DNA of 64,000 bases from Candidatus Thalassarchaeaceae archaeon (GCA_030747395.1 JASLKT010000001.1:4661-68660); one strand, 5' to 3'; positions 5,590 through 37,913 are shown, counted from the first letter of the stretch. The notes: a model not told the origin generated them from the sequence alone. Numbers and translations are program-made.

Positions 5590-7815
5590 ATGGCTGACGA
5601 TGATGAAAAAACACTATCTCTACGAGTAGCAAAAGCAATTCCAAGTGATGTTGGTCACGGACGAGCACGCGTGCCTTTTGACAATGATTTAGGCTTGAAA
5701 CCTGGAGATGTAATCGAAATCAGCGGGGAGCGAAATACCGCGGCAATCGTTTGGAGATGTCGTCCTGAAGATGCAAACCTTGGTGTTATTCGAATCGATG
5801 GTATCATTCGTAAGAATGCTGGAGTCAGTCTAGGTGACCGAGTGACGATAAAGAAGGTCGAAACGAATGAGTGCGAGAGACTGGTGCTGAGTCCCGTAAT
5901 GGCAAAGCAACAGAAAGTCAAGTTCGGTTCAGGAATCGAAGGATTTGCCCGACGTGGCCTCAACAAGCGACCCGTGGTCGCAGGTGATAGAATATTCATA
6001 CCTGGCATGACACTCTTTGCAGAGGCGTTGCCATTCGCAATCGTGTCCACCAAACCGAAAGGAATCGTTAGAGTCCTTCCCGATACTGAAATCGTCATCA
6101 AGGAAGAAATGGTCGAAGACGAGGAACACGGAGAGGTTTCATCCATCATGTACGAAGACATCGGTGGACTTGGAGATCAATTGCTCAAAGTTCGTGAAAT
6201 GATCGAATTACCACTCAAGCATCCAATTCTCTTCCGCCGCCTTGGAATCGACCCCCCAAAGGGTGTACTTCTCCATGGCCCACCCGGAACTGGCAAAACG
6301 ATGATCGCAAAGGCAGTGGCCAACGAAACAAATGCCCATTTTACAAGCATCAATGGACCCGAAATTATTTCGAAATACTACGGTGAATCTGAGAAACAAT
6401 TGCGTGAAATCTTTGATGAAGCCGCTTCAAATGCCCCTGCAATCATCTTCGTCGATGAGTTGGATTCAATTGCACCCAAGCGTGAAGATGTTTCTGGCGA
6501 AGTTGAGCGTCGTGTCGTCGCTCAATTGCTCACACTGATGGATGGGATGCAGGGCCGTGATAATGTGGTTGTCATCGGCGCTACAAATCGACCCGATGCT
6601 ATCGATCAAGCCCTTCGAAGGCCGGGTCGGTTCGATCGTGAATTGGAGATCGGTGTTCCCGACAAAAATGGGCGTCGTGAAATTGTGAATATTCACACAA
6701 GAGGCATGCCGATTGCAGATGATTTTGACATGGACTGGATTTTGGAAAATTCATACGGGTTTGTAGGTGCAGATATCATGAGCCTGACCCGAGAAGCCGC
6801 GATGAAGGCTCTTCGACGCTATCTACCTGAAATCGATTTAGATCAAGATGAAATTCCGCCTGAAGTGTTGGAAAAGATGGAAGTCCAAATGAATGACTTC
6901 CGGATTGCAATTAGAGACATCGAACCTAGTGCATTGCGTGAAATCTATGTCGAGATTCCCGAAGTCTCGTGGGATGATGTCGGTGGCCTTGACGAAGTCA
7001 AGGAACGCCTCAAGGAGAGTGTTGAATGGCCATTGACAATGCCTGATAGATTTGAGCACTTTGGCATCAAACCACCTCGTGGTATCGTCCTTTTTGGTGC
7101 CCCAGGAACGGGCAAGACCTTGATCGCCAAAGCCATTGCTCATGAAGCAAAAGCGAATTTCATCACGGTCAAGGGTCCGGAACTCATCTCAAAGTGGGTT
7201 GGTGAATCTGAAAAAGCAATTCGCGAGGTGTTCAAGAAGGCAAAACAATCCAGCCCCAGTATCATTTTCCTCGATGAATTCGAATCGATTGCAGGTGCAC
7301 GTACATCCAATTCTGGTGAAGGCAGCGATGTATCGAACCGTGTCGTCAATCAATTGCTATCCAGTATGGATGGCGTTGAATCCATGGAAGGAGTCATCAT
7401 CATTGCCGCAACGAACCGTCCCGAAATGATTGACCCTGCATTGCTGCGAAGTGGCCGGTTTGAACGTGTTATGCACATTCCACCACCTGACCACGCAAGC
7501 CTTCGAAAGATTCTGAAAATCCACGCCAAAGATATGCCTCTTGGCAAGTTTGATCTTGAGAGTCTAGCAGACAACATGCAAAATTTCACTGGCGCTGATG
7601 TAGAAGCGGTGTGCCGTGAAGCAGCCCTCATCGCCATGCGAGCTGAAAGAAAATCTGTCGCGAAGAAGCACTTTGAGGAAGCGATTGCTAGAGTTCGACC
7701 AACAATCACACCTGAGATGCTTGAATATTACTCCAAGTTAGAGAGCCGCTTAACCAGTGGACTGGAGAGTATCCGAAGAAAGAATGACACCTTGATGGGT
7801 ATCGAAAGTGTATGA
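5590..7815 (+). CDS. cdc48: CDC48/VCP-like AAA+ ATPase (two AAA domains plus N-domain)
   Basis: Two GPPGTGKT / GAPGTGKT Walker A motifs, DE-x-D Walker B motifs, SRH regions, and an N-terminal CDC48_N-like domain. 741 aa. Confidence 0.9.
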
Positions 7816-7824
7816 GGTGGATAA

Positions 7825-8067
7825 ATGCCAGCAGCCTTCTCAACAGAACTGTCTGGTCGACGGGTCGTTGATAGTCGAGGAGATTTACTAGGAACTGTTG
7901 TCGATTTGTTCATTGATGATACCAACGGCACCGTTCTTGGGCTTCTCCTAGAATTGGACGAAGGATTGGATCCAAAACTGCTGCCGTGGTCCACTTTTGG
8001 CGAATATTTGGTCGTTCCAACCGATGAGGTTGCATCCATCGATGAAGAGATTCATCTCAATCGATAG
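7825..8067 (+). CDS. PRC-barrel domain protein
   Basis: 80 aa, LSGRRVVDSRGDLLGTVVDLFIDDTNGTVLGLLL PRC-barrel pattern. GAGGTGGA Shine-Dalgarno 6 nt upstream. 10 bp after cdc48. Confidence 0.6.
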   Translation: MPAAFSTELSGRRVVDSRGDLLGTVVDLFIDDTNGTVLGLLLELDEGLDPKLLPWSTFGEYLVVPTDEVASIDEEIHLNR

Positions 8068-8173: not shown

Positions 8174-9844
8174 ATGAAAATCGGTTCGGTTGACATTGGC
8201 ACCGTCCTGAAATCACGCAAAACGCGTCGAACAGGATTGATGGTCGCTTTCTATGGGGTATTGGCGCTTTTGCTCTACAGCATAGTTGGTTCTTACCTAG
8301 TGCCAAGTGACCCACACCTGTCCGCCTACGATGATGATTGGGATGATTTATCTGCATTCAGAGCAGATCTCAAAGGAATGGGCATTGATACGACGAGTAT
8401 GATTTCTAGTCCCGTACTGTTGGGAGAAATTGAGAACCCTGAGGATACCGTGTTCATCGTTACTGGTGTGGAACAAGATACAATTTCCCTGCCGAGATTT
8501 ACTGGAGATGTTGATGTAGTCCAATTCAGTGAATCTGAAGGATATACAACAACAGAAATTGAAGCAATAGTGCAGTATGTTGCGTCTGGTGGAACATTGC
8601 TTGTCATGGATGATTTTGGTTTCTCAGCTGGTTTGGCTGAGACGTTTGAATTGGGATACAGTGGACATCAACTCTACGATGAGGAAGCTTGGGCTCGTGG
8701 ACTTGACTACAATTACATCTGGATGAATTCATCGAACCCCTACGATTACACAGGGACCGACAAATCTGGCTCACATCCGTGCTTATCGGATGCCGATAAT
8801 GATGGAATCATCGACCGATTGGATTCATTGCCAAACAGCCCGGTCAACAGTGCCGATACACCTACAGTTGCTGAAGCCGGACTTTGTGCTCATCACATTG
8901 AAACCGATTCCACTGGTGGACAATATTGGAATTTCAGCACGAACTACAACGTTTTGCTGAACACGCCGTCTGCATTCGATAAACAAGCCGCAGAATCAAA
9001 TTCAGACAATCGATATGCTTGGGGTACTTCCAGTCAGGATTCTTACCTCGACACCAACGATGACGGACAGGGTGACGTTGGATTTGAGGGAGGAGGGATC
9101 GAAAGCGATGAGCAAGGTCCGTTCACAATGGCCGTCAAAGTCTGTGCCAAGCGAGATTGTGAAGAAATGCCTGGTGAGGCAATGGGTCGGGCAATTTTCG
9201 TCACAGATGGTTCAGTTCTGATGAATGCAATCTACGATTGGGAGGATACCAACGAGGGAGAATATGGTGAATTGAATGGCAAAATCATGCCTGAAAATGA
9301 CAACCGTCGCTGGGTTCTGGACATTGTTGCTGAATCATTATTGATGCACACCGCTGCTGATGAATTCAATGGGACATCTGGAGCCGGAAAGCAAGTCATC
9401 TTTGATGAAAGTCGACATCAACAAACGAATGCCATGGGTGACACCTACAATCTCATCTACTACATTCTGGTATACTTCACCAATGATTGGATGGCAATGC
9501 TGTTCCTTTTCCTAGCACTATTCATCGCCTTTGAGGCTGTGATTATCAAAAAGGTCGATCCTGAACCTTGGCGGCACGTATTCAGCATCATTTACTACGG
9601 ATTTGGTGATGCTAGACGATACGGTTACTATGGCCGTGCCAATAAAGTCAAGCAAGTATTACTGTCTAGGGTGAGGAATCTCAATTCATTGACCAGAGAT
9701 GAGTTTGATGCCTTGCCAGCTCGAGAATTGCAGAAGATGATTGGCGATCCTGTTCTCATCAAGTTCGTCTTTGAAGATCGGAATTACAGTCTTGAGCAAC
9801 TCGTTGCTGTTGTCAAACGGGTCAAAATGTGGGGACGCAAGTAA
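8174..9844 (+). CDS. membrane protein, DUF4350-like (MoxR-operon-associated type)
   Basis: N-terminal TM, large acidic extracytoplasmic domain, C-terminal TM, followed directly by a DUF58 gene. Family assignment by architecture only. Confidence 0.45.
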   Translation: MKIGSVDIGTVLKSRKTRRTGLMVAFYGVLALLLYSIVGSYLVPSDPHLSAYDDDWDDLSAFRADLKGMGIDTTSMISSPVLLGEIENPEDTVFIVTGVEQDTISLPRFTGDVDVVQFSESEGYTTTEIEAIVQYVASGGTLLVMDDFGFSAGLAETFELGYSGHQLYDEEAWARGLDYNYIWMNSSNPYDYTGTDKSGSHPCLSDADNDGIIDRLDSLPNSPVNSADTPTVAEAGLCAHHIETDSTGGQYWNFSTNYNVLLNTPSAFDKQAAESNSDNRYAWGTSSQDSYLDTNDDGQGDVGFEGGGIESDEQGPFTMAVKVCAKRDCEEMPGEAMGRAIFVTDGSVLMNAIYDWEDTNEGEYGELNGKIMPENDNRRWVLDIVAESLLMHTAADEFNGTSGAGKQVIFDESRHQQTNAMGDTYNLIYYILVYFTNDWMAMLFLFLALFIAFEAVIIKKVDPEPWRHVFSIIYYGFGDARRYGYYGRANKVKQVLLSRVRNLNSLTRDEFDALPARELQKMIGDPVLIKFVFEDRNYSLEQLVAVVKRVKMWGRK

Positions 9845-9860
9845 GCGGAGGTGAGATGAA

Positions 9861-11111
9861 ATGTGGACACGAAAAGCAGCACTGTTCCTAACATCAGGTA
9901 TTTCTCTCGTCCTGATTGGAATGATGATTGCAAATTTCCAGTTGATGATTCTCGGTATCATGTTCATGGCTTTCCTAGCCATCAATTCGTGGGTCACGGG
10001 TCATGGTGAATTGGAAATTGTGCGGACACTATCAGCTGACAATCTGTACAAAGGTGATGATTTGTATGTCGAATTGGCGATTACAAACAGTTCATTCCGT
10101 CGTACACAACAATTGGAAGTATTTGACAACGTTCCGCATGAAATGAAATTGCGTAGTGGTCTCAACTACATGCGCGTCAATCTCGGCCCTGGGGAAACCA
10201 CGCGGATTCGCTATGTTTTGCGGTGCCCGCTTCGAGGACACTATTCCTTTGGGCCTGTGTCTGTTCGATATAGAAACACGTTCAACCTGTTCAGCCAAGA
10301 GATGTACATCGATCACCGCTCGGGTCTCATTGTATTCCCTCAAGTACGGGAAATTGAAGAAGCGATGGTTCGAAGTCGAACACCAAAGATGTACACGGGT
10401 GCAATGACTCTTCGAACCCCCGGTCCTGGTTCTGAATTTTTTTCACTGCGAGAATATGTTCCGGGAGACCCATTCAAGATTATCAATTGGAAAGCATTTG
10501 CTCGCACTGGTATCATGATGGTCAACGAAAAATGTCGTGATGCGGTCACAGATGTATTCATTCTTCTCGATTCAAGAGACATCAGTCGTATTGGTACCGT
10601 ACTCAAAAATCCACTAGAAATGGGTACAGTTGCCGCTGCAAGTTTGGCCTCTTATTTCATCAAGAGACGCGATTCTGTCGCCCTTGCTGTGTACGATGAT
10701 ACTCTGTCATATTTGCCAGCAGATGGTGGAGATAAGCAGTATTTCAAGGTCCTATCTAGCCTTGCGGGTGTCGCTCCAAAGGGTGACATGCCACTCCAAG
10801 CTGTAACCAATTCCCTCGCACCGCGATTCAGCCGTGGTAGCCCCGTATTCGTCATCTCAAGTCTTGAGGGTGATGGGACTGTGCCACATGCAATTCGCGA
10901 TTTGGCTGGCCGTGGTCACGAAGTCGTAATTCTCAGTCCATCCAGCATCGATTACGAGCGACTTGTGAGTCGAATCCCTCGAATGTCATATGAGGTGATG
11001 AAACTTGAACGACAAAATCGACTGTCCGCTGTTGCAGGTTATGGAGCACGTGTCATCGATTGGATGCCCGATGTAGAATTGAGTCAAGCACTACTACAGG
11101 TGAAAATGTGA
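9861..11111 (+). CDS. DUF58 family protein (vWA-like, MoxR-partner type)
   Basis: Signature LREYVPGDPFKIINWKAFART...VFILLDS. N-terminal 2 TM. GGAGGTGA Shine-Dalgarno upstream. Confidence 0.75.
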   Translation: MWTRKAALFLTSGISLVLIGMMIANFQLMILGIMFMAFLAINSWVTGHGELEIVRTLSADNLYKGDDLYVELAITNSSFRRTQQLEVFDNVPHEMKLRSGLNYMRVNLGPGETTRIRYVLRCPLRGHYSFGPVSVRYRNTFNLFSQEMYIDHRSGLIVFPQVREIEEAMVRSRTPKMYTGAMTLRTPGPGSEFFSLREYVPGDPFKIINWKAFARTGIMMVNEKCRDAVTDVFILLDSRDISRIGTVLKNPLEMGTVAAASLASYFIKRRDSVALAVYDDTLSYLPADGGDKQYFKVLSSLAGVAPKGDMPLQAVTNSLAPRFSRGSPVFVISSLEGDGTVPHAIRDLAGRGHEVVILSPSSIDYERLVSRIPRMSYEVMKLERQNRLSAVAGYGARVIDWMPDVELSQALLQVKM

Positions 11112-11123
11112 GGAGGTGAATGA

Positions 11124-12371
11124 ATGGCAGATGATGTAGCACAACAAGAGGAAGGTCTGACCAGCCTTCATTTGCGAACTCTGCGAAAGGAGTGGCGCGT
11201 TGTTTGCCTCCAACTTGTTGCGAGTATTTCTCTAATCTGGTTGTTCTTGACCATGACCCAAGTCTTTGGACACTGCCATCCAGATTATGTTGCCAGTGGT
11301 TCATGGTGCCCTGCACTGGATCACACACTAACCCTTGATCAAATCGAAGCTGGTTTCGCTGACGGCGGAGGATTTGATGAATTGCCCTTACCTGATTGGC
11401 TAACAGGCCAAGGCAACGAAGGTGATGGGCGATTTTACGTTCCTATTCTATTGACAATGGCCATTGCCGGTGCTTGGGTAGCCCTCAATTTCCAACCACC
11501 AGCACGTCGACGAAAGATTACCCTTGCATTGTTGGGTAGCATGATTCTATTCCTCGCTGGAATGTTCCTACTCACATGGACATTTGGCATGATTATCAAT
11601 TTCGACTTGTATTTACCATTCGGGCATTCTGATGATGCAATGAATCATGCAAATCATTTGGTTTGGCCCTTATCAGTCTACATTCAAGTACTCGTCATGT
11701 TGTTTTTCTTGGCGCCAGTACTCTTTGGCTTGATGGGAATCTGGGGCCTTTCAAAGCGAATGGTCAATTGGTCGATGGCATATATGCTCATTTTCCTTGG
11801 ACTGTATGCTCTGCTATCCTACGAGGGTGTGATCAGCCAATTATCGAGTGCGTCAGACCCTCATGCCCCAGGTCTCAATCCACTTCCAACTCAAATCGGT
11901 GAGGCCGATACGTTGGGTGGCTTGATTTCTGGTGATGTTTGGGAGTTGCTACTGGTTGCAATCCTCTTGATGGTTTATTCAGAAACTGCACAAGCGACGA
12001 TTCGCTTCCTTGAATACGCATTCCGATTGCCTGAATCCTGCAAGAAGGACCCTGAATATGTGCGCCAATTCCAGAGCATTCTCAACACGCACATGCAGCA
12101 TACTGTAGTCGTGATTCTAGCAGTTGGGTTCGTAACCATGCTCGCTCTCAAGTTCGATGATTTGATTATTGATATCGTGGGATGGACTGGTTCTGGTCAG
12201 TGGAGTGGACAGGTCAGAGAATCACTTGAATTGCGCCTCACCTATGGGAAGGTGATTTCGGCAATGCTATTCCTCACATTTGTTGCAGGACTACGTTACA
12301 TCGTCCCTTGGCAACGAATCTCAGGTCTAGTTGAATCTGCACTTGCGAGTAGGGGTAATACAAACCCCTAA
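11124..12371 (+). CDS. polytopic membrane protein, unknown
   Basis: 415 aa, more than 8 hydrophobic segments. GGAGGTGA Shine-Dalgarno. Last gene of the + strand array. Confidence 0.5.
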   Translation: MADDVAQQEEGLTSLHLRTLRKEWRVVCLQLVASISLIWLFLTMTQVFGHCHPDYVASGSWCPALDHTLTLDQIEAGFADGGGFDELPLPDWLTGQGNEGDGRFYVPILLTMAIAGAWVALNFQPPARRRKITLALLGSMILFLAGMFLLTWTFGMIINFDLYLPFGHSDDAMNHANHLVWPLSVYIQVLVMLFFLAPVLFGLMGIWGLSKRMVNWSMAYMLIFLGLYALLSYEGVISQLSSASDPHAPGLNPLPTQIGEADTLGGLISGDVWELLLVAILLMVYSETAQATIRFLEYAFRLPESCKKDPEYVRQFQSILNTHMQHTVVVILAVGFVTMLALKFDDLIIDIVGWTGSGQWSGQVRESLELRLTYGKVISAMLFLTFVAGLRYIVPWQRISGLVESALASRGNTNP

Positions 12372-12632
12372 TCAATCACCGCTAACGTGAATTCTTAGGA
12401 TTATGCGAGCAACGCCCTCTCCTAGAAGGAGAGTTCCGGCAGGTAATCCACAAATGGTCACAACCCACAATGCAATTGTGGGCCAATCAGATTCTGCCCA
12501 CATCCATTGACCAACAAAAATCGCAGTAACAATTGTAGTCAGGAATCCAATTCTCTCCAAGAGTCCAGGGTATCGACGGCCATGAGTTTCTTGTCGACCG
12601 ACGAGGGTTCCCGCTCCCTCATCCGCACTCAT
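12372..12632 (-). CDS. small 2-TM membrane protein
   Basis: 86 aa, two hydrophobic helices. 10 bp downstream of the coiled-coil gene on the same strand. Confidence 0.4.
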   Translation of the reverse strand: MSADEGAGTLVGRQETHGRRYPGLLERIGFLTTIVTAIFVGQWMWAESDWPTIALWVVTICGLPAGTLLLGEGVARIILRIHVSGD

Positions 12633-12641
12633 TTTCCCAAC

Positions 12642-15600
12642 TCACATATCGAGGTCTGACAATTCGCGTTCAAGATCGTCCAGTGCATCTCGTTGAACTG
12701 GATCAGCAGGAGGGGGTACACCGTTTTCTGTTGATTCTCGAACATCAGCAGCGGAATCAACTTCGGAGAGAGCGACATCAATATTTGCCATCAATGCAGC
12801 TTCATCGGCATCGCCAGCCACATTTGCAGGTGTCAATCCAGCAGAGATACGTGTTGAAATGTCCACACCATCGGTTTCGGCAGCAGCTTCAATCGGCTGC
12901 CAAGTTGAATTGGATGCTGGAGCCGCACTCGCCTCAGGTGTAGGTGCTGCAGCAGGTGCGCTGGGTGCAACCACAGAAGACGGTGAAGATACGACTGCAA
13001 CCACATCATCCACGGGATTCATGTGTCGAACCGCTTCATTGTTGATTTCAGGCCTTTCATGACGTGCCAATCCATCCACTTCGAAGGGTAAGCTGCCACT
13101 ACGTTGGAACGTCCATAGCGCCCCTGTTGGTTCTTCTCCGGTCAGACCTGCAACGTCCAATCGACGCAACAAGGATTCCAATACCTCCACAGTTTCAGCC
13201 AAGCCAACAGCATCTCCAGCGGTACGACGGTCTGCATCTAGATAGATTTCATCGAGAGAGCGTTGAATCAGACGTCGTGCCTCAACGGATATGTATGGTA
13301 GGGCTTCAGGCATGTGACTGAATCGCTCAAGAGGTTTCACATCTTCAGCTGGTAAGCCCAAATCGACAAGGCCACGGAGTACGTCTTGCATTTGTGCTAG
13401 CATTGTCACAGACCTCTCATATTCACCGAGTAATCCTTCAAGATCAATGACAACGTGCTGAACTGTTTCTGCCAGTTGGTGCTCTAGACGAGATTGTACT
13501 GACCATCGCGTCAAACCGCGAACTGTTGAGGCTGTTTCAGGTGCCTGTCTTTCTAGGAGGTCCATGACCTCAAGTGATAGCAGATGCCTCGGAGTTTTCG
13601 CAACTTCATCCACACTGTGTTGGATGATGGCCAATGCGCGTTCAACAGCGCGGTCGAGCAAGACGATACTGTAACCACGACTGCGAGCGTTCGCCATCCG
13701 GTCAAGGACTGGTTCTAGGCTAGAGAGTCCGCGCTCATCGCCGAGCAAAGCCTGAGCGAGAGGTTCTTCAGCCAACCGGGCACGGATTCGATCTGCTTCT
13801 TGTAAATCGAGAAGGGCCATCTCGTGCGCTTCTTGGATATCTTCGGCCTGCTCAAGCAGCATTCTCAATTCCGTCTCTGATTGGGCCTTGCGTGCATCAA
13901 GATCGCCAAGTTCACGAAGAAGTAAACGGCGTTCTTCCATCATTTCACGTAGTTCAGATTGCATGATTGTTGATTTGCGCTCAGAATCGAGAATGCGACC
14001 TCGCTCTTCTTCCATGAGGCGCCGGTGAGCGTGAGCTTCCGCTTCTAGTTCCACAAGTTCGGCCCGCTGACTCTCAATTCTACGTTCAACTTCGTCGAGT
14101 TCACCTTGTCCTGTTCGGTGTCGATCGCGCTGTGCGTTAACCTGTTCTGTGAGAACGCGCTGCAATCGCTCATCATGGTCCAATGATTTTCGGACTTCAT
14201 CAAGACGTGTTTCAGCAGCACTGAGTTCAGACTTGGTTGTTGCTTCTTCAGTTGATAATTCGCGCAAATCGGTGAGTAGGGATTCGCGGGAATCGAACTC
14301 GCCCAATGCACTGGCCAACTCTTCAGCACGCTTTTCGACCATGTGCTCCAATTCAGATACGCGCTTAGACAATCGATTGGAAAGGGACGTGGACTCATCT
14401 GTTTCAGATTCTGCGGCACGAACCTTGGCTGATAAATCATCAATCTCTCGATGAAGACCGCTTCTCTCATCACGGGATTCACTCAATGTGGATTCAAGAT
14501 CGTGCATCATATCTCGCGCTTCATCTCTTGATGCGCGAGCATCTGCAACTTCTCTCTCTAGGCGACCTTTCTCTCTCTCGAGTGAAATCTGAGTGTGTTC
14601 AAGTTGTTCGATACGCTTCTTGATTTCACCTCCAGCAGGAGTGAGGACCTTTGAACTTGATACTGGCATCAATTTGGCCATAGGTCCACCACTTTCGAGC
14701 ATCTTCCATGTGGACCGCCCGGATTCCATGGCTTCAAGACCCAAATCAAACCCGAAGAGAGCGTCAAGCCGTCCAGTCAACAATCGCTTTCGATCATCCG
14801 AGCGAGTACGACAACCGGCAATTGCATCAGCAAAATGTGCGAGTGAGAAATCTGCCACTGTAGAGCCAGCGAGGCCTAAGCGCGCTCTTCTCTCCAACCT
14901 GTGTGACTGTAGGCGACGAGAAGAGGTGGTCATCGTATGTACTGCATCGGAAAGTGCGGCCCCTTCAGATTCCCGCAATCCAGTTGGAACTCCATCCACT
15001 AGCATAACTGAAATCGGATCGGCTGATTCCGATACAGATTGGATATAGCCCGTGAGGTGGTCTTCATAGGCCATTCGAAGATGAGAAATTAATTGGTCAA
15101 TTCCAGATTTTGTTTCCTTGGTGATGAAACCCTCTGGCAACTCTTCATTCTCGGCCAATGCATCTTCATCCATTGTTCCAACGAGGCTTGCTGCATTGGA
15201 GAGAGCCGCATGTGCATCAGCCCCATGTCGGCACCAAATCGCAATTGCTGCTTGACCTGCTTCCGTGAGCATCAATTGCCCACCTTCCAATCGTAAATTG
15301 GTTGAGAGTGATTCATCTTGAGTGAATTTCGATGACAAGCCGCGGAGGTGTTCATGGCCTAAAGTGGCAAGATCGTCTGGTGTTGAAGGCAATTCACCAC
15401 TCGAGTGGATGACGACGCCATCCTCAAATGCCAATCCACCCATGACTTCATCAGATTCAGTCAAGCGATCGACGAGTAAGGCCAAGTCGGTTGTTTCAAT
15501 AGGTAGTGCGGCAGCACCTTGAGCAAGTAATGAGGCGACATCAGAAGGATCTGAAAATGCCTCAGGAATTCTACGAGCTACTTCTGTGAATTGAGACATT

Positions 15601-15878
15601 GTCCATGATGCGCCACGCGAATTGAGGTCGTGAGCATCAGACAATTCCAGCAAACGATTCTTGGCAGCATCCCCTGTAACGAATGTTTGCTTGGCTTCAG
15701 ATTCAGCCAACCATCCGACAACACGCCCACCGTGAATCAATCGATGCGCACAAGCAGTTTTTGCACGAGGTTTGTAATGAGAAATTACACCTGTCTCAAA
15801 GGGCATCTGATTTTGCCCCACACTCAAATCGGCTTCAGAATCAACAGCATTTCCAGGGGGTAGATTAAACATTTTCAC
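12642..15878 (-). CDS. large coiled-coil protein with N-terminal Roadblock/LC7 (MglB-like) domains
   Basis: 1078 aa. aa ~130-230 (GGLAFEDGVVIHSSGELP...AIAIWCRHGADAHAAL) fits the Roadblock fold, with a second weaker copy near aa 270-330. Then ~350 aa of heptad-rich, E/R/L-rich coiled coil and an Ala/Pro/Asp-rich acidic tail. Start may be ATG at 15872 rather than GTG at 15878. Confidence 0.6.
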   Translation of the reverse strand: MKMFNLPPGNAVDSEADLSVGQNQMPFETGVISHYKPRAKTACAHRLIHGGRVVGWLAESEAKQTFVTGDAAKNRLLELSDAHDLNSRGASWTMSQFTEVARRIPEAFSDPSDVASLLAQGAAALPIETTDLALLVDRLTESDEVMGGLAFEDGVVIHSSGELPSTPDDLATLGHEHLRGLSSKFTQDESLSTNLRLEGGQLMLTEAGQAAIAIWCRHGADAHAALSNAASLVGTMDEDALAENEELPEGFITKETKSGIDQLISHLRMAYEDHLTGYIQSVSESADPISVMLVDGVPTGLRESEGAALSDAVHTMTTSSRRLQSHRLERRARLGLAGSTVADFSLAHFADAIAGCRTRSDDRKRLLTGRLDALFGFDLGLEAMESGRSTWKMLESGGPMAKLMPVSSSKVLTPAGGEIKKRIEQLEHTQISLEREKGRLEREVADARASRDEARDMMHDLESTLSESRDERSGLHREIDDLSAKVRAAESETDESTSLSNRLSKRVSELEHMVEKRAEELASALGEFDSRESLLTDLRELSTEEATTKSELSAAETRLDEVRKSLDHDERLQRVLTEQVNAQRDRHRTGQGELDEVERRIESQRAELVELEAEAHAHRRLMEEERGRILDSERKSTIMQSELREMMEERRLLLRELGDLDARKAQSETELRMLLEQAEDIQEAHEMALLDLQEADRIRARLAEEPLAQALLGDERGLSSLEPVLDRMANARSRGYSIVLLDRAVERALAIIQHSVDEVAKTPRHLLSLEVMDLLERQAPETASTVRGLTRWSVQSRLEHQLAETVQHVVIDLEGLLGEYERSVTMLAQMQDVLRGLVDLGLPAEDVKPLERFSHMPEALPYISVEARRLIQRSLDEIYLDADRRTAGDAVGLAETVEVLESLLRRLDVAGLTGEEPTGALWTFQRSGSLPFEVDGLARHERPEINNEAVRHMNPVDDVVAVVSSPSSVVAPSAPAAAPTPEASAAPASNSTWQPIEAAAETDGVDISTRISAGLTPANVAGDADEAALMANIDVALSEVDSAADVRESTENGVPPPADPVQRDALDDLERELSDLDM

Positions 15879-16180
15879 ACCTCAAGTAGATCTTCGATAA
15901 CAGGTCTTAGCATTCGAGCCTCGTGACTCAATCGACCAACGGGCAATACATCACTAGCAAGCCAAAGACTAGAACCGCCTCGAATCGCAGTTGCTACCGT
16001 CGTTGCCTCACCTTCAAACCACATCTCATCAATGCGGCCGATTTTGAGAGTTGTTGCCATCTTCATGGCCCGATGGAAAAGTGTGATGTTTCCTTGTCCT
16101 TCGCCACCCATTGTATCTCCCTCACTCGATAATAAGCAAGCCTCGATTTGATCGAGATTTGAGAGCAAACGAGTCAACAT
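15875..16180 (-). CDS. Roadblock/LC7 family protein
   Basis: 101 aa, EGDTMGGEGQGNITLFHRAM...IGRIDEMWFEGEATTVATAIRGGSSLWLASDV matches the Roadblock/MglB pattern. Stop overlaps the start of the downstream coiled-coil gene (4-nt overlap). Confidence 0.55.
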   Translation of the reverse strand: MLTRLLSNLDQIEACLLSSEGDTMGGEGQGNITLFHRAMKMATTLKIGRIDEMWFEGEATTVATAIRGGSSLWLASDVLPVGRLSHEARMLRPVIEDLLEV

Positions 16181-16235
16181 GGGCGTCCTCAGAAGTCATC
16201 GAGGCAGAATCCGACTTCAAGAACTTGCCCCATAC

Positions 16236-16253
16236 CGGCCCCTAAGGGGGCCG
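16236..16253. other. GC hairpin CGGCCCC-TAAG-GGGGCCG
   Basis: Perfect 7-bp GC stem. Lies in the divergent region upstream of the Roadblock operon. Near-identical hairpin type at 29604..29621. Confidence 0.3.
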
Positions 16254-16373
16254 TTTGATGAGTGAAATTGATTCGCCAACTGGAAAATGGCGATATTGAT
16301 GCAATTTTGCCACGTTTGGAGTGGATATTGTTTTGAAAAAAAGGCGAAAAGAATACAATGATGGAGATTATAG

Positions 16374-19009: not shown

Positions 19010-19984
19010 ATGATCATCAGTCGGACCCCGGTTCGTGTCTCATTTTGTGGTGGTGGAACCGACCTTCCAGCCTACTACGTGGGTAGTGAAAATGGTGGGC
19101 TTGTGACTTCAATGGCATTGGCTAAACATATCCATGTCACAGTCAACAAGCGATTCGATAACAGCGTCCGAGTGGGCTATTCTAAAACTGAAATTGTCGA
19201 CAATTTCGAGGAGTTGGAGCACGAATTGGTGCGAGAAGCTATGCGACTTACAGGAGTTACTCATAGTGTCGAAATAACCACGATTGCGGACATACCCTCA
19301 AGAGGCACGGGGTTGGGTTCCTCATCGGCTCTAACCGTCGGATTACTCAATGCCCTCCACACCTATGCTGGTCGAAAACCCGATGCGGCACAACTGGCTG
19401 AAGAAGCCTGTCGAATTGAAATCGACATCCTAGGCCAACCTATCGGCCGACAAGATCAGTATGCCGCTGCCTTTGGTGGCGCAAACCAGATTGCCTTCCA
19501 TCCCGATGACAGTGTGATTGTTACACCTGTCAATCTCGATGCAGCCTCCTTGGAGGAGAACTACTTCCTTGTCTATACAGGCATCACTCGGAAGGCGACC
19601 GATATCCTTGCCGTACAGAGTGCAACTTCCGATCAGAAGCGAGACAATCTCGATACACTCCGCGAACAAGCCATTGAAGTCAGAACTGCGCTTGAATCAA
19701 ACAATCATGATGCGGTCGGCACTTTGCTCGACTCCTCCTGGCAAATCAAGCGAGGGTTGGTCGATGGCATCACGGTAGCGGAACTGGATGAACTCTATTC
19801 AAGTATCATCGAAATGGGGGCAGCAGGAGGGAAATTACTCGGAGCTGGTGGTGGAGGATTCTTCCTGTTCCAAGGTGATGCATCAATTGGTTCAAAGGTC
19901 GCTGGAATGCACAAAGTCATCCCTCTCGTCCTTGATGATGTGGGCAGCATCATCATTTTCGATGACGGCGCTCGTCAGGAGTGA
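19010..19984 (+). CDS. GHMP-family sugar kinase (HddA/heptose-7-phosphate-kinase-like)
   Basis: PVRVSFCGGGTDLPAYY N-terminus and PSRGTGLGSSSALTVGLLNAL GHMP motif. 324 aa. Confidence 0.7.
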   Translation: MIISRTPVRVSFCGGGTDLPAYYVGSENGGLVTSMALAKHIHVTVNKRFDNSVRVGYSKTEIVDNFEELEHELVREAMRLTGVTHSVEITTIADIPSRGTGLGSSSALTVGLLNALHTYAGRKPDAAQLAEEACRIEIDILGQPIGRQDQYAAAFGGANQIAFHPDDSVIVTPVNLDAASLEENYFLVYTGITRKATDILAVQSATSDQKRDNLDTLREQAIEVRTALESNNHDAVGTLLDSSWQIKRGLVDGITVAELDELYSSIIEMGAAGGKLLGAGGGGFFLFQGDASIGSKVAGMHKVIPLVLDDVGSIIIFDDGARQE

Positions 19985-19988
19985 TTCG

Positions 19989-22229
19989 ATGCGCAAAGCA
20001 GTGCTGCTCGTCGGAATTCTAATTCTAGCCAGTATCCCCGTTTCCGCAGATGAGCCTACAACGATTCACCTGTGGAGCGAACAGGCACCCGGACCTGTCC
20101 TCTTGTGGAAGAGTGGTGAGGATATGATCAATGTTGATCCTAACCTACCAATCGATCTTGATATTCCAGCAGGGAACTATTTCTTTGTCAGACTCTTCGA
20201 GGGTATTCCACAGATGAACAGATTGTTGTTTAGCGAAAGTACGAACGTCACTGACTTCCTATTGGAGAATCTCACTCATTGGAGTTCAATGGCCGGCCAG
20301 ATGATACCTGGCCCGGCGCTGATTGAAGGAAATGCGCATCTAGACATCACAGGGCCCATTGCCAGAAGTGAGGCAATGAACGCCACTTGGACATCGTCCA
20401 CGAGACTGCCCGCCTCTCTGGGCCATCCTGGACTTGAGGGTGCGTTCAGAGGAATTATGGAACAGATGACATTGAACGGTTTCGCAGACGAAAATGCATT
20501 CACTGCTTGGGCTATCAACAACACGGAGATTGGATGCTGCGCCTATGACCACAACGACATGATCGCCTCAAACATATCGATTTCAGTCATCTTTGACGGC
20601 CCGATTTGGGGTTGGGACATCAGTGCAGAGTTCGTCGGTCAAGGCGATGGTCGAAGCACTAGGCTCCTCGATATTCCAGTAACTGGATTCGTAGAAGATT
20701 TCACCGATCTGCGAATCACACTTCCTGAACCACATGAGATTCGCTACAGCCCTCAAGAGGATTACATCACAGGAACACCTGATGATTTTGTAATCCACCG
20801 GGGCGATATCCCCGTCACTGGTAATGCAACCATTGCACTTGGCATCAATGTCGCCCCGGTTGTAGGAATGCATGTGACCGATGGTCAACTCCCATGGCTT
20901 CCATTCGGTCAACTTTCAGAAATTGTTTCTGATTGCACGGATTCATCGATTTCCGAACCCGAAAGTCGATTTATTCTAAGAAATGGGAATTCAACATTGC
21001 TCGATGAGCAATCACTCAATCTTACCATCGATGCAATGTTCCTCAATTTGTCTCCAAGCACATGGTTGAATCTCACACTAGAATGCACCGACCCACAAGG
21101 TCTGATGTCCAATGAATCGATGGAGATTTACATCGATGGTGTGCTACCGACCCGCACATTGCAAATGCAGTATTTACATCCAGATGACCCCAGCCCCGTC
21201 GATGCTGATTATGGCAATCAATCCATTTCAATTCCTTCCGGGGCTGTGCTTTCGGGGGCGGTTCAAGCCGGAGATGATTCGGACCCCCCTGTCGACATTG
21301 AATGGACCAGTAACAAGAGTAGTGGATGGATTCATTTGGGGATTGGAAATCATGCGTGGAATGACATTTTTGTGCAGGGCCCTCACATCAATGGTCAGCA
21401 TTTGAGCATCGAAGATCGACACCAAACAAAGACACTCACCGTATACAGTTTACAACTAAATCTCACCGATGCAGCTGGAAATATTCAAACTCAAAATTGG
21501 GATGTAACTGTGACTGACCGCACGAGCCCCACACCACGACCTGCTCTCAGTATCGATGGAAATTACTACGGGGATTTGAATCACCCAATCGAAGGGGGTT
21601 CACCCATCGATGTAAGCATGAATGAATCATGGGATGATATCGATGCAATCGAACAACTCACTTGGTCGGTGGAATTGAATGGTGAAACTTTGAATCTCAC
21701 AACATGGGAGGATGTTCGATCCTTCACGCTCCCTGAATTGAAGACGGGGCGACATGCACTCGTTGTCAATGCAACCGATTCATCGGGCAATACTGGAACC
21801 CATTCAATGATGTTCGTCGTTGAGCCCCCGTTCGGAGCATTGTACCGAATAACAGATGTTGTCAAGGTTGGCGATGGTGGGCCTGGTGATCAGGGAGCAT
21901 TGGATGTCACAATCGCCAACGACGCTCAAGGTGAAACCTACTTCCGATTGTGCTACCTGACCGACTGCACCTCACAATTCAGGGCAGTGGAAGCCAGTGT
22001 GGATGGGCCGGGTGAAATGACGCATCGAATTCCTGTGAAAGAATGGGCTTCGGGCGAGATTAACATTCGAATCGAATACCCCGACAATACGACCAGCGAA
22101 TATCAAAGTGGATTGAATATTGACTCAGAGATGACACCCTTGATGTGGATTCTACTCGCACTGCCCCCTCTTGCTGGATTGGTGGCATTTTTGCGACTAA
22201 AGCGTCAACCCGATGATAAGGAATCATGA
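19989..22229 (+). CDS. secreted, C-terminally membrane-anchored surface protein, unknown function
   Basis: Internal ATG at 19989 gives the signal peptide MRKAVLLVGILILASIPVSA. The annotated ORF start 19788 would overlap the kinase gene. C-terminal TM WILLALPPLAGLVAFL then a basic tail. 747 aa. Confidence 0.55.
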   Translation: MRKAVLLVGILILASIPVSADEPTTIHLWSEQAPGPVLLWKSGEDMINVDPNLPIDLDIPAGNYFFVRLFEGIPQMNRLLFSESTNVTDFLLENLTHWSSMAGQMIPGPALIEGNAHLDITGPIARSEAMNATWTSSTRLPASLGHPGLEGAFRGIMEQMTLNGFADENAFTAWAINNTEIGCCAYDHNDMIASNISISVIFDGPIWGWDISAEFVGQGDGRSTRLLDIPVTGFVEDFTDLRITLPEPHEIRYSPQEDYITGTPDDFVIHRGDIPVTGNATIALGINVAPVVGMHVTDGQLPWLPFGQLSEIVSDCTDSSISEPESRFILRNGNSTLLDEQSLNLTIDAMFLNLSPSTWLNLTLECTDPQGLMSNESMEIYIDGVLPTRTLQMQYLHPDDPSPVDADYGNQSISIPSGAVLSGAVQAGDDSDPPVDIEWTSNKSSGWIHLGIGNHAWNDIFVQGPHINGQHLSIEDRHQTKTLTVYSLQLNLTDAAGNIQTQNWDVTVTDRTSPTPRPALSIDGNYYGDLNHPIEGGSPIDVSMNESWDDIDAIEQLTWSVELNGETLNLTTWEDVRSFTLPELKTGRHALVVNATDSSGNTGTHSMMFVVEPPFGALYRITDVVKVGDGGPGDQGALDVTIANDAQGETYFRLCYLTDCTSQFRAVEASVDGPGEMTHRIPVKEWASGEINIRIEYPDNTTSEYQSGLNIDSEMTPLMWILLALPPLAGLVAFLRLKRQPDDKES

Positions 22230-29687: not shown

Positions 29688-32600
29688 ATGCGAAAAGTTG
29701 CCATTTTCATCCTTGCAATCTTGCTCTTTTCCACAGCATTGCCTTTTGCATCCGCAGCTACTGAAACCCAATTTTCAGACGGTTCCTCAACGTTCACACA
29801 TGTCTTCAGTCAGGCTGGGGATGCGGCCACACAGGGTGTGACACTACCGTATGGGGCCGAAGTGAGTGATGTTGAATTTGAACTTGAAGGGTCATCTTCA
29901 ACACAAAGTTGGTTCAATCGGACGAGCAATGCTGACTTCGGTGGCCAAGGAACGACTGGATCAAGTCAATGGGGTTGGTCAATCAACCAGAATGGATGGA
30001 ACTATGGTTATCGCCAAAATGTCAAAGTCGACAATGGTGAACTGGAATTGCGCCCTACAGAAGAAACCACCTACTGGTCGATGAGCAATGCAAACGAGAT
30101 TGCATCATCCACTGGCGGCAGCATGAACACGACTGGAGAATACTTCTCAACCGCTGAAGCAGGTTACAACGGAATGGGGGATACCAGCACAAAGAGTATG
30201 TCCGGGGGGACTTGGAATTACATGGGCCCCGTCGTCAAACAAGGTGATGAAATCCATGTCATTCGATACGGTTCTGTTAGTTCCTACGGCGGATATCAAT
30301 TGAGTGCAATCAATCGATTCAATGCAACGACTGGAGCGTCCATTGGAACGGCTAGCATTCAATACAACAACTGTTCTTCAAACAACGTATACTACGTCAC
30401 CGATGCAACCAGTGATGGCGATGGAACTGTTTGGATGACTTCCTTCTACACGGGCACTGCCTATGGCGCGATTACGAACTGGTCGGTGACTCACTCAGGA
30501 AGTTCACTCATTTACAAGTGCGAGAGGTCGTGGACTGTTCTCGAAGTAGGTGGAATTTCCATTGACCCCATCACCGACAAAATGTACGTCGTACAACGGG
30601 TTCGACTGTCTAATCAATACACCATTGATTTGTGGGAAGTCAGTCGTAGTAACCCGAATCTGGCTATACAGACTTGGTCTCTAGGTGATTTATCCCATGG
30701 AGGGTCTACGACAATCAATAGTTATGTTAAACCAGCTGGACTAGATGTTCAAATGCCTCGAATTTCGGTCAATATTTACTGTTACTATTACTATTATTCG
30801 TATTATTGTGGTGAGGATCGGGTGTCATGGATGAACGTCTATCACCAACGCTCCAACTGGCCAGAATTGCAAGGTGAATTCCCCAGTTCTTACGCGAGTT
30901 TGGGGATTGAAAATATCGATGGAGAGTTGGCGACAACCTGTATGTATGGGTCGGTTACATCCTATTGTCCCAGCGCTACCACCATGCGGAAAATTACGAC
31001 GCGAGGACACGGTGCCACCGATTGGATGGGCACCCCAACATCAAATAGTGCCACGATCACATCGAGTATGCAAACACTCTCTCGTTCGGTTAGCGAACTT
31101 TCGCTTGGAGCTGCGATTACATGGGAACCAACGGGCACCTCAGTCGACTTTGAAGTTACAAACGATGGTGGAACTACTTGGAAGCGTGCCACCAGTGCGG
31201 GTCAAACGGTTACATTCACAAATGCTGGTAACAGTTTGGGGTGGCGGGCATGGCTCAACGGAACTGCTTCTGCTGCACCACTCATCGATACCGTAGGCCT
31301 CGCCTATGCCGCTACTTATGCCTCGAGTGGACAATGGAGATCATACCGTATTACATCTGGATCATTCCCTGATGCTGCGATGGTTTGGTGGAATGCCACC
31401 ACGCCAGGTGGAAGTTCTATCGATGTTCACTTCAGAGCTTCATCAAGTTGTACGAGTGGGACCAGAGTAAGCGTTCCAAGTTCCGGTTCAACAGTTACAT
31501 TTTCTCAAATGTCTGGAAGTTACATGTCTCTCTGCATTGACTTGGATGCTGGAACCTCCAATCAGTATACTCCGACACTATCCGACATCAACATCGCACT
31601 TTTCGAAAATGCACCTCAGGATGTCAAAATTGATATTTATGATACAGATTCTTCCACTCCTGTTAGTTGCACCATCCCTGAATATGAATGGGAATACGAT
31701 GGAACGCTCTTGGGTAGAACTACGGCGCAATCTTCGGGTGGGAACAATGATCTAGAAGATGCCTTCAACTGTATCGTTCCACAGTCAGGTTCTGGAACTG
31801 AAGTCGTGGGTGTGAAATTACACTCCTCCACTCAAGGGAAAGTCGAAATCAAATCAATGAGCATTGAATACACAATGGTGACTGTCAACCTTGACATTAA
31901 TTATAATGAAAATATGGTTCTCCACGAGCGTGGCGATTCTTATGAAATTGTTACCCGACATGTGATTGGGGACAATGCTCTGAGCATTACCAATGCTGAG
32001 TTGACCTTCCTCGCATCCCCGAATAGTGACGCACCAAAACTATCCTGGGCTGAAGATGGCACTCTTGTCGATGATGATCCTGAAGATTGGATTATTCCGG
32101 ACCAAGGTGGAACGTGGACGAATTTATCCAATGGCATCTTTGAAATCCACTGGATGTTCCGTGTTACAGATGATTTCCCAGAACAAAATAACGTCCGTTG
32201 GCGCATCAGTTGTACCGATGACAATGGCTTCTCACCAGCAACTCTAACGACAACTGATGCTGCAATCATTGTCAATCAATCGTATGGCCTCGGATGGTTT
32301 GCAATCCACGATGTTGAAGGTGAAGTCGTCAACGACGATGTGCAAAATGGAGATTGGGTCGTTGCAGGTGAGACCGTTTACTTCCAAGGTCAAGTCTGGT
32401 TTGCAGGAACACAAGATGCGCCTCTTAACTCAGTTTTCGATATCCGTGTCGCACGCAAGGACAGTCAGGGTGATTTCGTCTCTGCCAGTTGGAAAGACAA
32501 TTCAAATCCAAATGGAACATTCTTCATCTCTGTTGCCGTTCCGGACATGGATATCCCCGAAGGGGTGACATTTGAGGTCCAGGCTTACAATGTACGTGAT

Positions 32601-34823: not shown

Positions 34824-34889
34824 TCCCAAGCATGATTCGGCGCATTGAAGTCACACGCTTACCCGCCCTCCCCCTACGGGGAGAGGGCG

Positions 34890-37800: not shown

Positions 37801-37913
37801 CAGCAACGAGAATATTGCGTGCATATCCGCCAGAGTCCGAACGGGATTCATTGCTCAAAGCGATTCATGAAGCTGAAGTTCAATATGCAAGAACTCGCCG
37901 CTTCTGGGGTTAG
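34890..37913 (+). CDS. lhr: Lhr-like DEAD/DEAH-box ATP-dependent helicase
   Basis: Walker A APTGSGKTEAA, DEVH box (IIVDEVHEV), SAT motif (LSATVGN), helicase C region, C-terminal Lhr-like domain with a C-x-x-C...C-x-x-C Zn ribbon. ATG at 34890 preferred over the TTG at 34845. Confidence 0.8.
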   Translation: MSVYESLCEPLKAHLESQGWVPTPIQEAAIESLLSGQDRVLVAPTGSGKTEAAVLPILSACYSQEWGPMSILYVTPLRALNRDIDRRLEGLASVVNLKVGLRHGDTTQSERNRQSRKPPHLLVTTPETLQIMLTGKRLRGHLQNVRAIIVDEVHEVAASERGSQLLVGMTRIEEMAKRAIQRIGLSATVGNPSEVSKWLSPERGEAILADAPRNTEVRITCSQPDDADEAVALEHNTSPQAMASLRMLAGRLKADAPSLVFVNSRNAAETVANRLATFDETLEIGIHHGSLSAELRTEMENRLQRGELHALVCTSSLELGIDVGAIRHVHQIQSPRAVDRLLQRLGRAEHVLGGTGRGDLIAWECDDIAESAVIARRAIAGQIEGVQWRRMPRVVAANQMVMMTLSEGIVPLPATTAIFQRTSIFSEWTETDTRELARILDDRWLLKLVEQPESSDPLKWAPSLWRELVEGTSLPAERPSKEEIETLPSEKLERLRKEMRALVPKHLKDGWTSAGARTRSYMLEHLSMIPDAQRYTVRDVVSRRAIGSVDEAFVLSLNNSGEETDGAPRRFVIVGRTWEIVEANPEKTELLVAPVGSGGTAPVWSGELPPVPAEIAREVGALRRVIRELATGEESEDVETGARLDRIGGAPISCDIDDYPFAPDALSKLMNKVVEHVDASSSLPDERTLDVETRRDAVIVHSCHGSRINETLAHFLQAMASTIEGRMGRVLVDPYRISLQVPGLRATHVVEWLTETKPENLSTILRVTVPNGRQLRWRLVQVCKVMGVLRSGVDPRKVNLHGIAQRYKGTPLMDEALDKLFSERMDVDATTDLLHAIQDGIVKVAQRSPGALGVSPRSERDMQLPDWSNVEVRRRLENRLMNERVVMICLRCKTSSRFRVARYPSIERNCGICQASMRAVAREGLGDELAKWVASDEDNVRNRMMRNAEMVQNRGIDAILCLMARGVGENTATRILRAYPPESERDSLLKAIHEAEVQYARTRRFWG

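Follow-up and report, generated by a model that had tools for sequence, protein, structure and literature searches.

A 64,000-nucleotide (nt) stretch of DNA from Candidatus Thalassarchaeaceae archaeon (GCA_030747395.1 JASLKT010000001.1:4661-68660), referred to here at its full length as the window, carries a three-gene cassette that encodes a small Roadblock-fold protein, a very large protein in which another Roadblock domain is joined to a long rod, and a small membrane protein. Three co-directional open reading frames (ORFs), all on the minus strand, are called at positions 12372-16180, where an earlier reading made from the sequence alone (the sequence-only reading) had placed a three-gene operon. 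The architecture which that reading described, a Roadblock protein coupled to a Roadblock-rod protein and followed by a small membrane protein, holds. The base composition of the window is in no way unusual. The three genes, with lengths in amino acids (aa) and the evidence for each, are as follows.

15875-16180, minus strand: gene 1, a 101-aa standalone protein of the Roadblock/LC7 fold (ORF, AlphaFold2 (AF2) model, Foldseek, Pfam matches of orthologs)
12642-15878, minus strand: gene 2, a 1078-aa multidomain coiled-coil protein, 1076 aa if translated from the ATG at 15872 (ORF, full-length homologs)
12372-12632, minus strand: gene 3, an 86-aa protein with two hydrophobic segments (ORF, hydropathy, family alignment)

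Genes 1 and 2 had been described as overlapping by 4 nt. This is true of the longest gene 2 ORF, whose GTG start (15878) is overlapped to that extent by the TGA stop of gene 1, but under the favoured start the two genes are separated by a 2-nt spacer. The favoured start is the ATG at 15872, two codons past the GTG, which is preferred because public annotations give a product of 1076 aa and because translation from it yields the MFxLP N-terminus found throughout the family. Genes 1 and 2 are tightly coupled whichever of the two starts is used. The gap between genes 2 and 3, given earlier as 10 bp, is a spacer of 9 nt.

Two Roadblock domains of the cassette

The identification of the 101-aa protein as a Roadblock is confirmed by its structure model, by structural matches in the PDB and by the Pfam matches of distant orthologs. 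The AF2 model (predicted local distance difference test score, pLDDT, 92; predicted template modelling score, pTM, 0.85) has the topology a-b-b-a-b-b-b-a, with elements in the order helix 2-7, strands 13-17 and 23-26, helix 32-44, strands 52-56, 60-66 and 70-76, and helix 81-100. The 50 top-ranking PDB structures in a Foldseek search all belong to the Roadblock/LC7 family, with template modelling scores normalised to the query of 0.6-0.8 and E-values down to 4e-5. They include LAMTOR2/p14, MP1, Asgard Roadblocks, a Streptomyces Roadblock/LC7 protein, MglB and dynein LC7.

The sequence itself has no Pfam match at E<=1 and does not reach the gathering score of Robl_LC7 (PF03259), which is 23 bits; NCBIfam likewise yields no Roadblock for this or for the large protein, and PDB sequences searched with a profile of its nearest relatives gave none. 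The distant Poseidoniales orthologs that occupy the position of gene 1 are slightly longer (113-116 aa), and three of four match Robl_LC7 with E-values of 1e-4 to 1e-3 and scores of 19.1-22.1 bits, slightly short of the 23-bit cutoff. Of the three matches, two cover the profile nearly in full and the third covers its first 26 positions. These distant orthologs resemble classical Roadblocks, and the 101-aa window protein is, as modelled, a trimmed and divergent member of the family. Its 63 homologs carry no annotation, and those with a named source come from Poseidoniales, Thalassarchaeaceae or Thermoplasmatota.

The N-terminal third of the large protein was modelled over aa 1-412 (AF2, pLDDT 79), which resolves three domains.

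15543-15878, minus strand: gene 2 aa 1-112, a beta-rich N-terminal domain that starts with an invariant MFxLPxG (AF2)
15174-15494, minus strand: gene 2 aa 129-235, an internal Roadblock/LC7 domain (AF2, Foldseek, Pfam matches of relatives)
14874-15128, minus strand: gene 2 aa 251-335, a third alpha/beta domain, non-canonical for Roadblock (AF2)

At least one clear Roadblock-like domain had been expected in this region, and it is found at aa 129-235. There the modelled elements (helix 129-139, strands 145-152 and 155-161, helix 167-182, strands 192-197, 200-207 and 210-216, helix 222-235) follow one another in an order identical to that of the 101-aa protein. All of the 50 best Foldseek PDB matches to the aa 1-412 model are Roadblock structures, aligned over about 85-120 columns; their placement at aa 129-235 rests on the topology and on the Robl_LC7 match at residues 132-214 of the homolog P0115. 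The large window protein has no match to Robl_LC7 in Pfam. When members of the family are searched individually with their N-terminal regions, six of 16 match Robl_LC7 (best E 7.2e-5), and one relative is labelled by JGI as belonging to the Roadblock/LC7/MglB family, 'predicted regulator of Ras-like GTPase activity'.

A second, weaker Roadblock copy in the same protein, also put forward by the sequence-only reading, is not supported. The domain at aa ~10-105 is modelled with strands 29-35, 44-49, 52-59, 65-68 and 86-91 and helices 69-82 and 94-103, giving the order b-b-b-b-a-b-a, and the domain at aa 251-335 has the order b-a-b-b-b-a-b-a; both orders differ from that of a canonical Roadblock. 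Robl_LC7 is matched by none of 14 diverse family members in the first domain and by none of 17 in the other, neither of these flanking subdomains has a significant match among PDB sequences, and a comparison of aa 251-335 with Roadblock domains by hhalign is not significant. The evidence supports one internal Roadblock domain in the large protein, not two or three.

Rod, C-terminal domain and membrane peptide

Beyond its N-terminal third the large protein consists of a rod, a conserved domain, a variable linker and a short terminal peptide.

13764-14636, minus strand: gene 2 aa ~415-705, a proline-free charged rod, a putative coiled coil of ~290 aa (composition, heptad score, map of proline and glycine)
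13059-13763, minus strand: gene 2 aa ~706-940, an orphan C-terminal domain and the most conserved part of the protein (conservation profile, invariant columns, hidden Markov model (HMM) search)
12696-13058, minus strand: gene 2 aa 941-1061, a variable acidic linker rich in alanine, proline and serine, presumed disordered (composition, alignment)
12645-12695, minus strand: gene 2 aa 1062-1078, a C-terminal amphipathic acidic peptide (66 family C-termini, alignment)

A continuous coiled coil of ~350 aa had been predicted after the Roadblock region. A rod is supported by composition and by matches to coiled-coil arms, but its length is ~290 aa (aa 415-705). This segment contains no proline, is 37-51% charged and consists to 60-80% of glutamate, leucine, lysine, arginine, glutamine, alanine and aspartate. 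Its similarities in databases are matches far below threshold to the arms of SMC, Rad50 and LmuB and, in homologs, to crescentin and tropomyosin. The NCBIfam matches of SMC/Rad50 type reach 31 bits, where the cutoffs are 567-1087 bits, and are confined to aa 415-737, and PADLOC gives a weak LmuB match to the coil region (E 6e-7). Searches of the large protein against Pfam, NCBIfam, PADLOC and PHROGs return nothing beyond such coiled-coil noise, and a scan for the P-loop pattern GxxxxGK[ST] is empty. A relationship to SMC/Rad50 was considered and rejected, as the protein has no ATPase heads, hinge or Walker motifs and its 31-bit matches lie in the coil only.

The C-terminal domain, and not the Roadblock region, is the best-conserved part of the family, since column identity in the family profile is 0.74-0.88 over aa ~640-920 and 0.53-0.69 in the N-terminal third. 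An exhaustive search of 1.84 billion cluster representatives with an HMM of aa 696-965 recovered only 41 proteins, and the full-length proteins among them are all 1020-1089 aa with the domain at ~695-965. This profile evidence makes it an orphan domain, set in a protein of fixed architecture. Against the PDB, the profile of the domain gives only a marginal FliS-like match (E 0.06, ~90 residues). FliS is a flagellar chaperone that forms a four-helix bundle, and the match is probably generic helical-bundle similarity. A helical C-terminal domain, as the sequence-only reading had it, is presumed.

The acidic tail rich in alanine and proline was correctly recognised by the sequence-only reading: aa 941-1078 are rich in alanine, valine, aspartate, proline and serine and carry a net charge of -21. 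Within it the linker at aa 941-1061 is the least conserved and most indel-rich part of the family alignment, and the extreme C-terminus has a consensus, ALxxLExxLSDLD[LIMF]-COOH, that is shared family-wide (66 members). The leucine spacing of the terminal peptide fits an amphipathic helix, and the natural reading is that the peptide would act as an interaction tip on a flexible tether. Presumably it is comparable to other tethered interaction tips such as the acidic tail of SSB and MIM-like helices.

The small protein downstream of the large one, described earlier as having two transmembrane (TM) segments, does have two hydrophobic segments by hydropathy. In the family alignment its conserved motifs are TLxGR..E..G..YP ahead of the first TM segment (TM1) and CGLP within the second (TM2). 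Either end is bordered by basic residues, whereas acidic and aromatic ones make up the short loop between the segments, a distribution of charge that suggests a hairpin with both termini in the cytoplasm (N-in/C-in). The protein has no match in Pfam, NCBIfam, PADLOC or PHROGs.

Distribution, known systems and a possible scaffold

The distribution of the cassette was scanned with one genome per species. The large-protein family occupies 237 loci, each in a species-representative genome, and every title that bears a lineage names Poseidoniales, Thalassarchaeaceae, Poseidoniaceae or Marine Group II. Full-length homologs are 1058-1108 aa, 40-100% identical to the window protein and unannotated, the named ones coming from Thalassarchaeaceae, Poseidoniales or Thermoplasmatota; one from a Thalassarchaeaceae metagenome-assembled genome (MAG), P0064, is 100% identical, which places the window in Marine Group IIb. 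Among the 84 loci that were fetched, the large ORF is complete in 65. Directly against the start of gene 2 lies a small ORF in at least 57 of the 60 loci with room upstream, and another follows gene 2 by ~9-12 nt in 62 of 63 loci, with at least two hydrophobic segments in 57. The cassette is thus kept as a unit in related genomes, down to 30-40% protein identity, as the sequence-only reading would require, and it is inherited vertically as a unit at the level of the order. In relatives with 50%, 41%, 40% and ~30% identity the genes stand in the order PyrB, PyrI, NcsA (divergent), small gene, large gene and TM gene, after which come, as a convergent block, a multi-TM, a DUF58 and a DUF4350-like protein, and then a PRC-barrel protein and Cdc48. 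The overlaps and very short spacers are kept as well, which argues for co-transcription and translational coupling.

As a separate observation, the large gene occurs on two contigs in four MAGs (L010/L013, L035/L046, L058/L060 and L059/L066). These copies could reflect strain mixtures, mis-binning or real paralogy.

The view that the cassette is not a described archaeal system agrees with full-text searches of the literature, in which no account of the family or of an archaeal Roadblock-rod-TM cassette came up; on Poseidoniales together with Roadblock or small GTPases they turned up passing mentions only. The Roadblock module itself is well known, while the architecture and the operon are undescribed and restricted to one lineage. 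Several known systems share parts of the design. In the MglB/MglC system of Myxococcus xanthus and Thermus (PDB 6hjm, 6h5b, 1j3w), which is likewise prokaryotic, the same alpha-beta-alpha sandwich is found as in both cassette proteins, and the two Roadblock paralogs encoded together here recall MglB and MglC, which act together. Unlike MglB/MglC, the cassette has no MglA-type GTPase adjacent or within ±10 kb, it includes a dedicated TM peptide, one of its Roadblocks lies inside a 1078-aa rod protein, and the window proteins fall below Pfam thresholds. Standalone Asgard Roadblocks (PDB 7f8m, 7yh1, 9jue; PMC10933270) are archaeal homodimers of the topology a-b-b-a-b-b-b-a and are among the best structural matches. 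They are single-domain proteins discussed alongside the many small GTPases of Asgard archaea (PMC10933270), whereas the Poseidoniales pair is set in a fixed three-gene cassette with a giant rod protein.

Ragulator (LAMTOR1-5; PDB 1veu, 5x6v, 5y39, 6ehr) supplies the top structural matches, LAMTOR2/p14 and MP1. By analogy, it is also similar in concept, with Roadblock heterodimers held at a membrane by a small anchor as a docking platform. The anchor in the cassette is a 2-TM peptide with no similarity to the lipidated LAMTOR1, however, Rag GTPases are absent, and the rod and orphan C-terminal domain have no counterpart in Ragulator. The resemblance would be one of organisation and not homology of whole systems, and stacked heterodimers are unsupported here. 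The Streptomyces conservon protein CvnB (PDB 3kye), another structural match, is a Roadblock/LC7 protein encoded in a conserved operon with a membrane protein, but the sensor-kinase-like CvnA, CvnC and the GTPase CvnD are all missing from the cassette. SMC, Rad50 and LmuB arms and crescentin-type proteins share the ~290-aa rod, in sub-threshold matches confined to the arms, whereas the terminal domains of the large protein are unrelated to those of SMC, Rad50 and LmuB, with neither ABC ATPase heads nor a hinge.

The reading tentatively preferred here is that this vertically inherited, Poseidoniales-specific operon encodes a cytoplasmic, membrane-anchored coiled-coil scaffold with a Roadblock dimer platform. 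Roadblock proteins assemble as homo- or heterodimers, and it is to these that GTPases or partner helices bind (PMC10933270). The 101-aa protein probably pairs with the internal Roadblock domain, since solved Roadblocks dimerise and the two genes are co-translated; alternatively, it might stack on a homodimer of that domain joined by the rod. Either arrangement would create a platform like that of Ragulator or MglB at one end of the rod, able to recruit a partner encoded elsewhere. The 2-TM hairpin peptide, with both termini predicted to be cytoplasmic, would anchor the complex through the C-terminal domain or the tethered terminal peptide. These two parts show the highest conservation and therefore fit interaction modules. 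The assembly would be a membrane-attached rod of ~40 nm with the Roadblock platform at one end, and may organise the inner face of the membrane in cell shape, envelope, division or positioning. A cytoskeletal, polarity or tethering role, as the sequence-only reading had it, is plausible by analogy.

Several points weigh against the scaffold. The entire neighbourhood (PyrBI, NcsA, DUF58, Cdc48) is syntenic across the order, so adjacency alone is weaker evidence than usual. Comparison by hhalign of the small family (56-66 sequences) with the large family and its subdomains is not significant, so that the two Roadblock domains are not linked by sequence; since hhalign misses two structurally confirmed Roadblock domains, it is silent on the other subdomains too. 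Heterodimerisation and membrane anchoring are proposals, drawn from gene order and from the behaviour of the fold's other members. As long as there is neither a functional handle nor a cultured host, the finding is of limited value. A more far-reaching version, which seems rather unlikely, would see here an unrecognised archaeal cell-organising apparatus, universal in and specific to a group that ranks among the most abundant archaea of the surface ocean: a Ragulator-like heterodimer platform on a ~40-nm membrane-anchored tether, with no dedicated adjacent GTPase and with expression controlled by its own structured upstream element.

Another explanation, on balance also unlikely, is that the cassette is a GTPase-regulatory module in which the Roadblock pair would form a platform of GTPase-activating or guanine nucleotide exchange type for a Ras-superfamily GTPase encoded elsewhere, while the rod and the membrane peptide localise its activity. 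The closest structural matches include MglA-bound MglB and LAMTOR2/3 in Rag-Ragulator complexes, and the JGI label quoted above points the same way. The absence of a GTPase gene nearby, already noted by the sequence-only reading, is real. In the 64-kb window no ORF combines a P-loop with an NKxD-type motif, no GTPase family of Pfam is matched, and no GTPase candidate lies within ±10 kb of the 84 loci across the order; a further Roadblock paralog was also not found in the window. With no MglA-family GTPase within about four genes, the cassette does not count as a 'coupled' MglB in the sense of PMC4316618. The absence is less odd than had been implied: Wuichet and Søgaard-Andersen counted 328 orphans (44%) among 749 MglB homologs of prokaryotes (PMC4316618), and a missing neighbour GTPase is therefore nothing exceptional. 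The supplement lists orphan MglB genes for Aciduliprofundum, and small GTPases that are unlinked and unclassified for both Aciduliprofundum and Thermoplasma (PMC4316618), which fits a partner encoded elsewhere. Against a regulatory module, 390 of the 449 members of the MglA family have a coupled MglB next to them, and as of 2014 no orphan MglB had been characterised (PMC4316618). Roadblock folds also work independently of GTPases, as in dynein LC7, which binds the intermediate chain (PMC10933270).

It is less likely still that the three proteins form no complex at all. In that case the genes would be neighbours through rigid synteny, the large protein would be a soluble coiled coil with an unrelated, SMC-like role in chromosome or nucleoid organisation, and the small genes would be independent. 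The surrounding genes are indeed equally syntenic, the best sub-threshold matches of the rod are to SMC, Rad50 and ASRP arms, and JGI calls one homolog a 'nucleic acid-binding Zn-ribbon protein', presumably a coiled-coil artefact. Yet the overlap or spacers of 2-12 nt are kept in nearly all loci, indicating co-transcription and translational coupling, the protein lacks a Zn-ribbon as it lacks ATPase heads and a hinge, its coil-only matches remain far below cutoffs (31 against 567 bits), and side-by-side Roadblock domains fit the obligate-dimer behaviour of the fold. A defence system or mobile-element cargo, like the SMC-type effectors of Lamassu or the membrane-anchored coiled coils of Zorya, is suggested by the weak PADLOC match to LmuB but is essentially excluded, as that match is coil-only with no effector or ATPase domain, PHROGs give no matches, composition shows no anomaly and, unlike patchy defence islands, the gene is found in 237 species-representative genomes at one conserved place on the chromosome, flanked by housekeeping genes.

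Poseidoniales (Marine Group II), which rank among the commonest archaea of the plankton, remain uncultured and have a cell biology that is essentially unknown. Lineage-specific coiled-coil proteins of obscure role are common. Here, a three-gene unit in fixed order across 237 species-level genomes points to a likely basic role in Poseidoniales cells, and the most conserved domain of the large protein is confined to this family among 1.84 billion protein clusters. The Roadblock fold is an ancient module that underlies polarity control by MglB, Ragulator and the dynein light chains, and the cassette extends its uses to a giant rod protein that is accompanied by a membrane peptide of its own and has no GTPase next to it. 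Should the pair of Roadblocks indeed function without a GTPase, this would bear on the pre-eukaryotic use of the regulatory platform.

Upstream element and neighbouring genes

A conserved non-coding element lies directly ahead of the cassette.

16181-16283, minus strand: conserved non-coding element upstream of gene 1 (nucleotide conservation across loci)

About 100 nt upstream of gene 1 are conserved in nucleotide sequence throughout the order and occupy the same position in L001-L085. The element consists of a CCAGTTGGCGAAT box (16271-16283), an AT-rich stretch, CAAA with a GC hairpin (16236-16253) and a AAGTTCTTGAAG box (16215-16226), and both boxes are unique within the window. The AAGTTCTTGAAG box stands 35-43 nt ahead of the ATG in 52 of 54 loci. 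The hairpin is present in all 54, with 18 distinct stems, every one of them paired, and compensating G-C, C-G and T-A swaps at stem positions 4-7. Its median score is 19.1, compared with 8.7±3.6 in composition-matched shuffles; as the top-scoring hairpin of each sequence was chosen, some of the pairing follows from the procedure, and what counts as evidence is the constant position together with the comparison with shuffles. The leader of the window has a folding z of -3.0. No Rfam family matches the element, and MAFFT with RNAalifold gave no consensus structure because the register of the stem shifts by one column between clades; the hairpin was analysed instead per sequence, anchored on its loop. 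The element could be a leader RNA structure, or else a promoter-proximal DNA element or operator.

Two further ideas about this region were set aside. Pairing of the CTTGAAG box with a Shine-Dalgarno-like GAGG is predicted in the window but finds no support across the family, where it amounts to 6.6 against 5.1 cross pairs, with a mean z of -0.57. The idea of a fourth conserved ORF ahead of gene 1 was rejected too, since a frame is open in only 15 of 55 loci and the open frames are non-homologous.

On the other side, a convergent operon on the plus strand (8174-12371) comprises the genes for a 556-aa DUF4350-like membrane protein, a 416-aa DUF58 protein and a multi-TM protein of 415 aa that has no family match. 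Its last stop ends at 12371 and adjoins the gene 3 stop (12372) with zero spacer, an arrangement kept in distant loci, and no obvious terminator is seen between the convergent operon and the cassette. Farther out, a Cdc48-family AAA ATPase gene (5590-7815, plus strand) is followed after 9 nt by an 80-aa ORF (7825-8067, plus strand). The latter occupies the position of a PRC-barrel gene, the Pfam match being to the gene of the syntenic loci and the correspondence one of position only. Adjacency of Cdc48 and PRC genes is reported to be frequent in archaea, and PRC-barrel proteins (CdpB) act in the FtsZ-based division of haloarchaea (PMC10120694). About 4 kb separate these two genes from the cassette, which is encoded on the opposite strand.

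Elsewhere in the window, two very large ORFs are adjacent on the plus strand (29688-34823, 1711 aa; 34845-37913, 1022 aa). An 813-aa ORF (19788-22229), with weak matches to the Ig-like family Big_13 and a hydrophobic segment at its C-terminus, may encode a surface protein.

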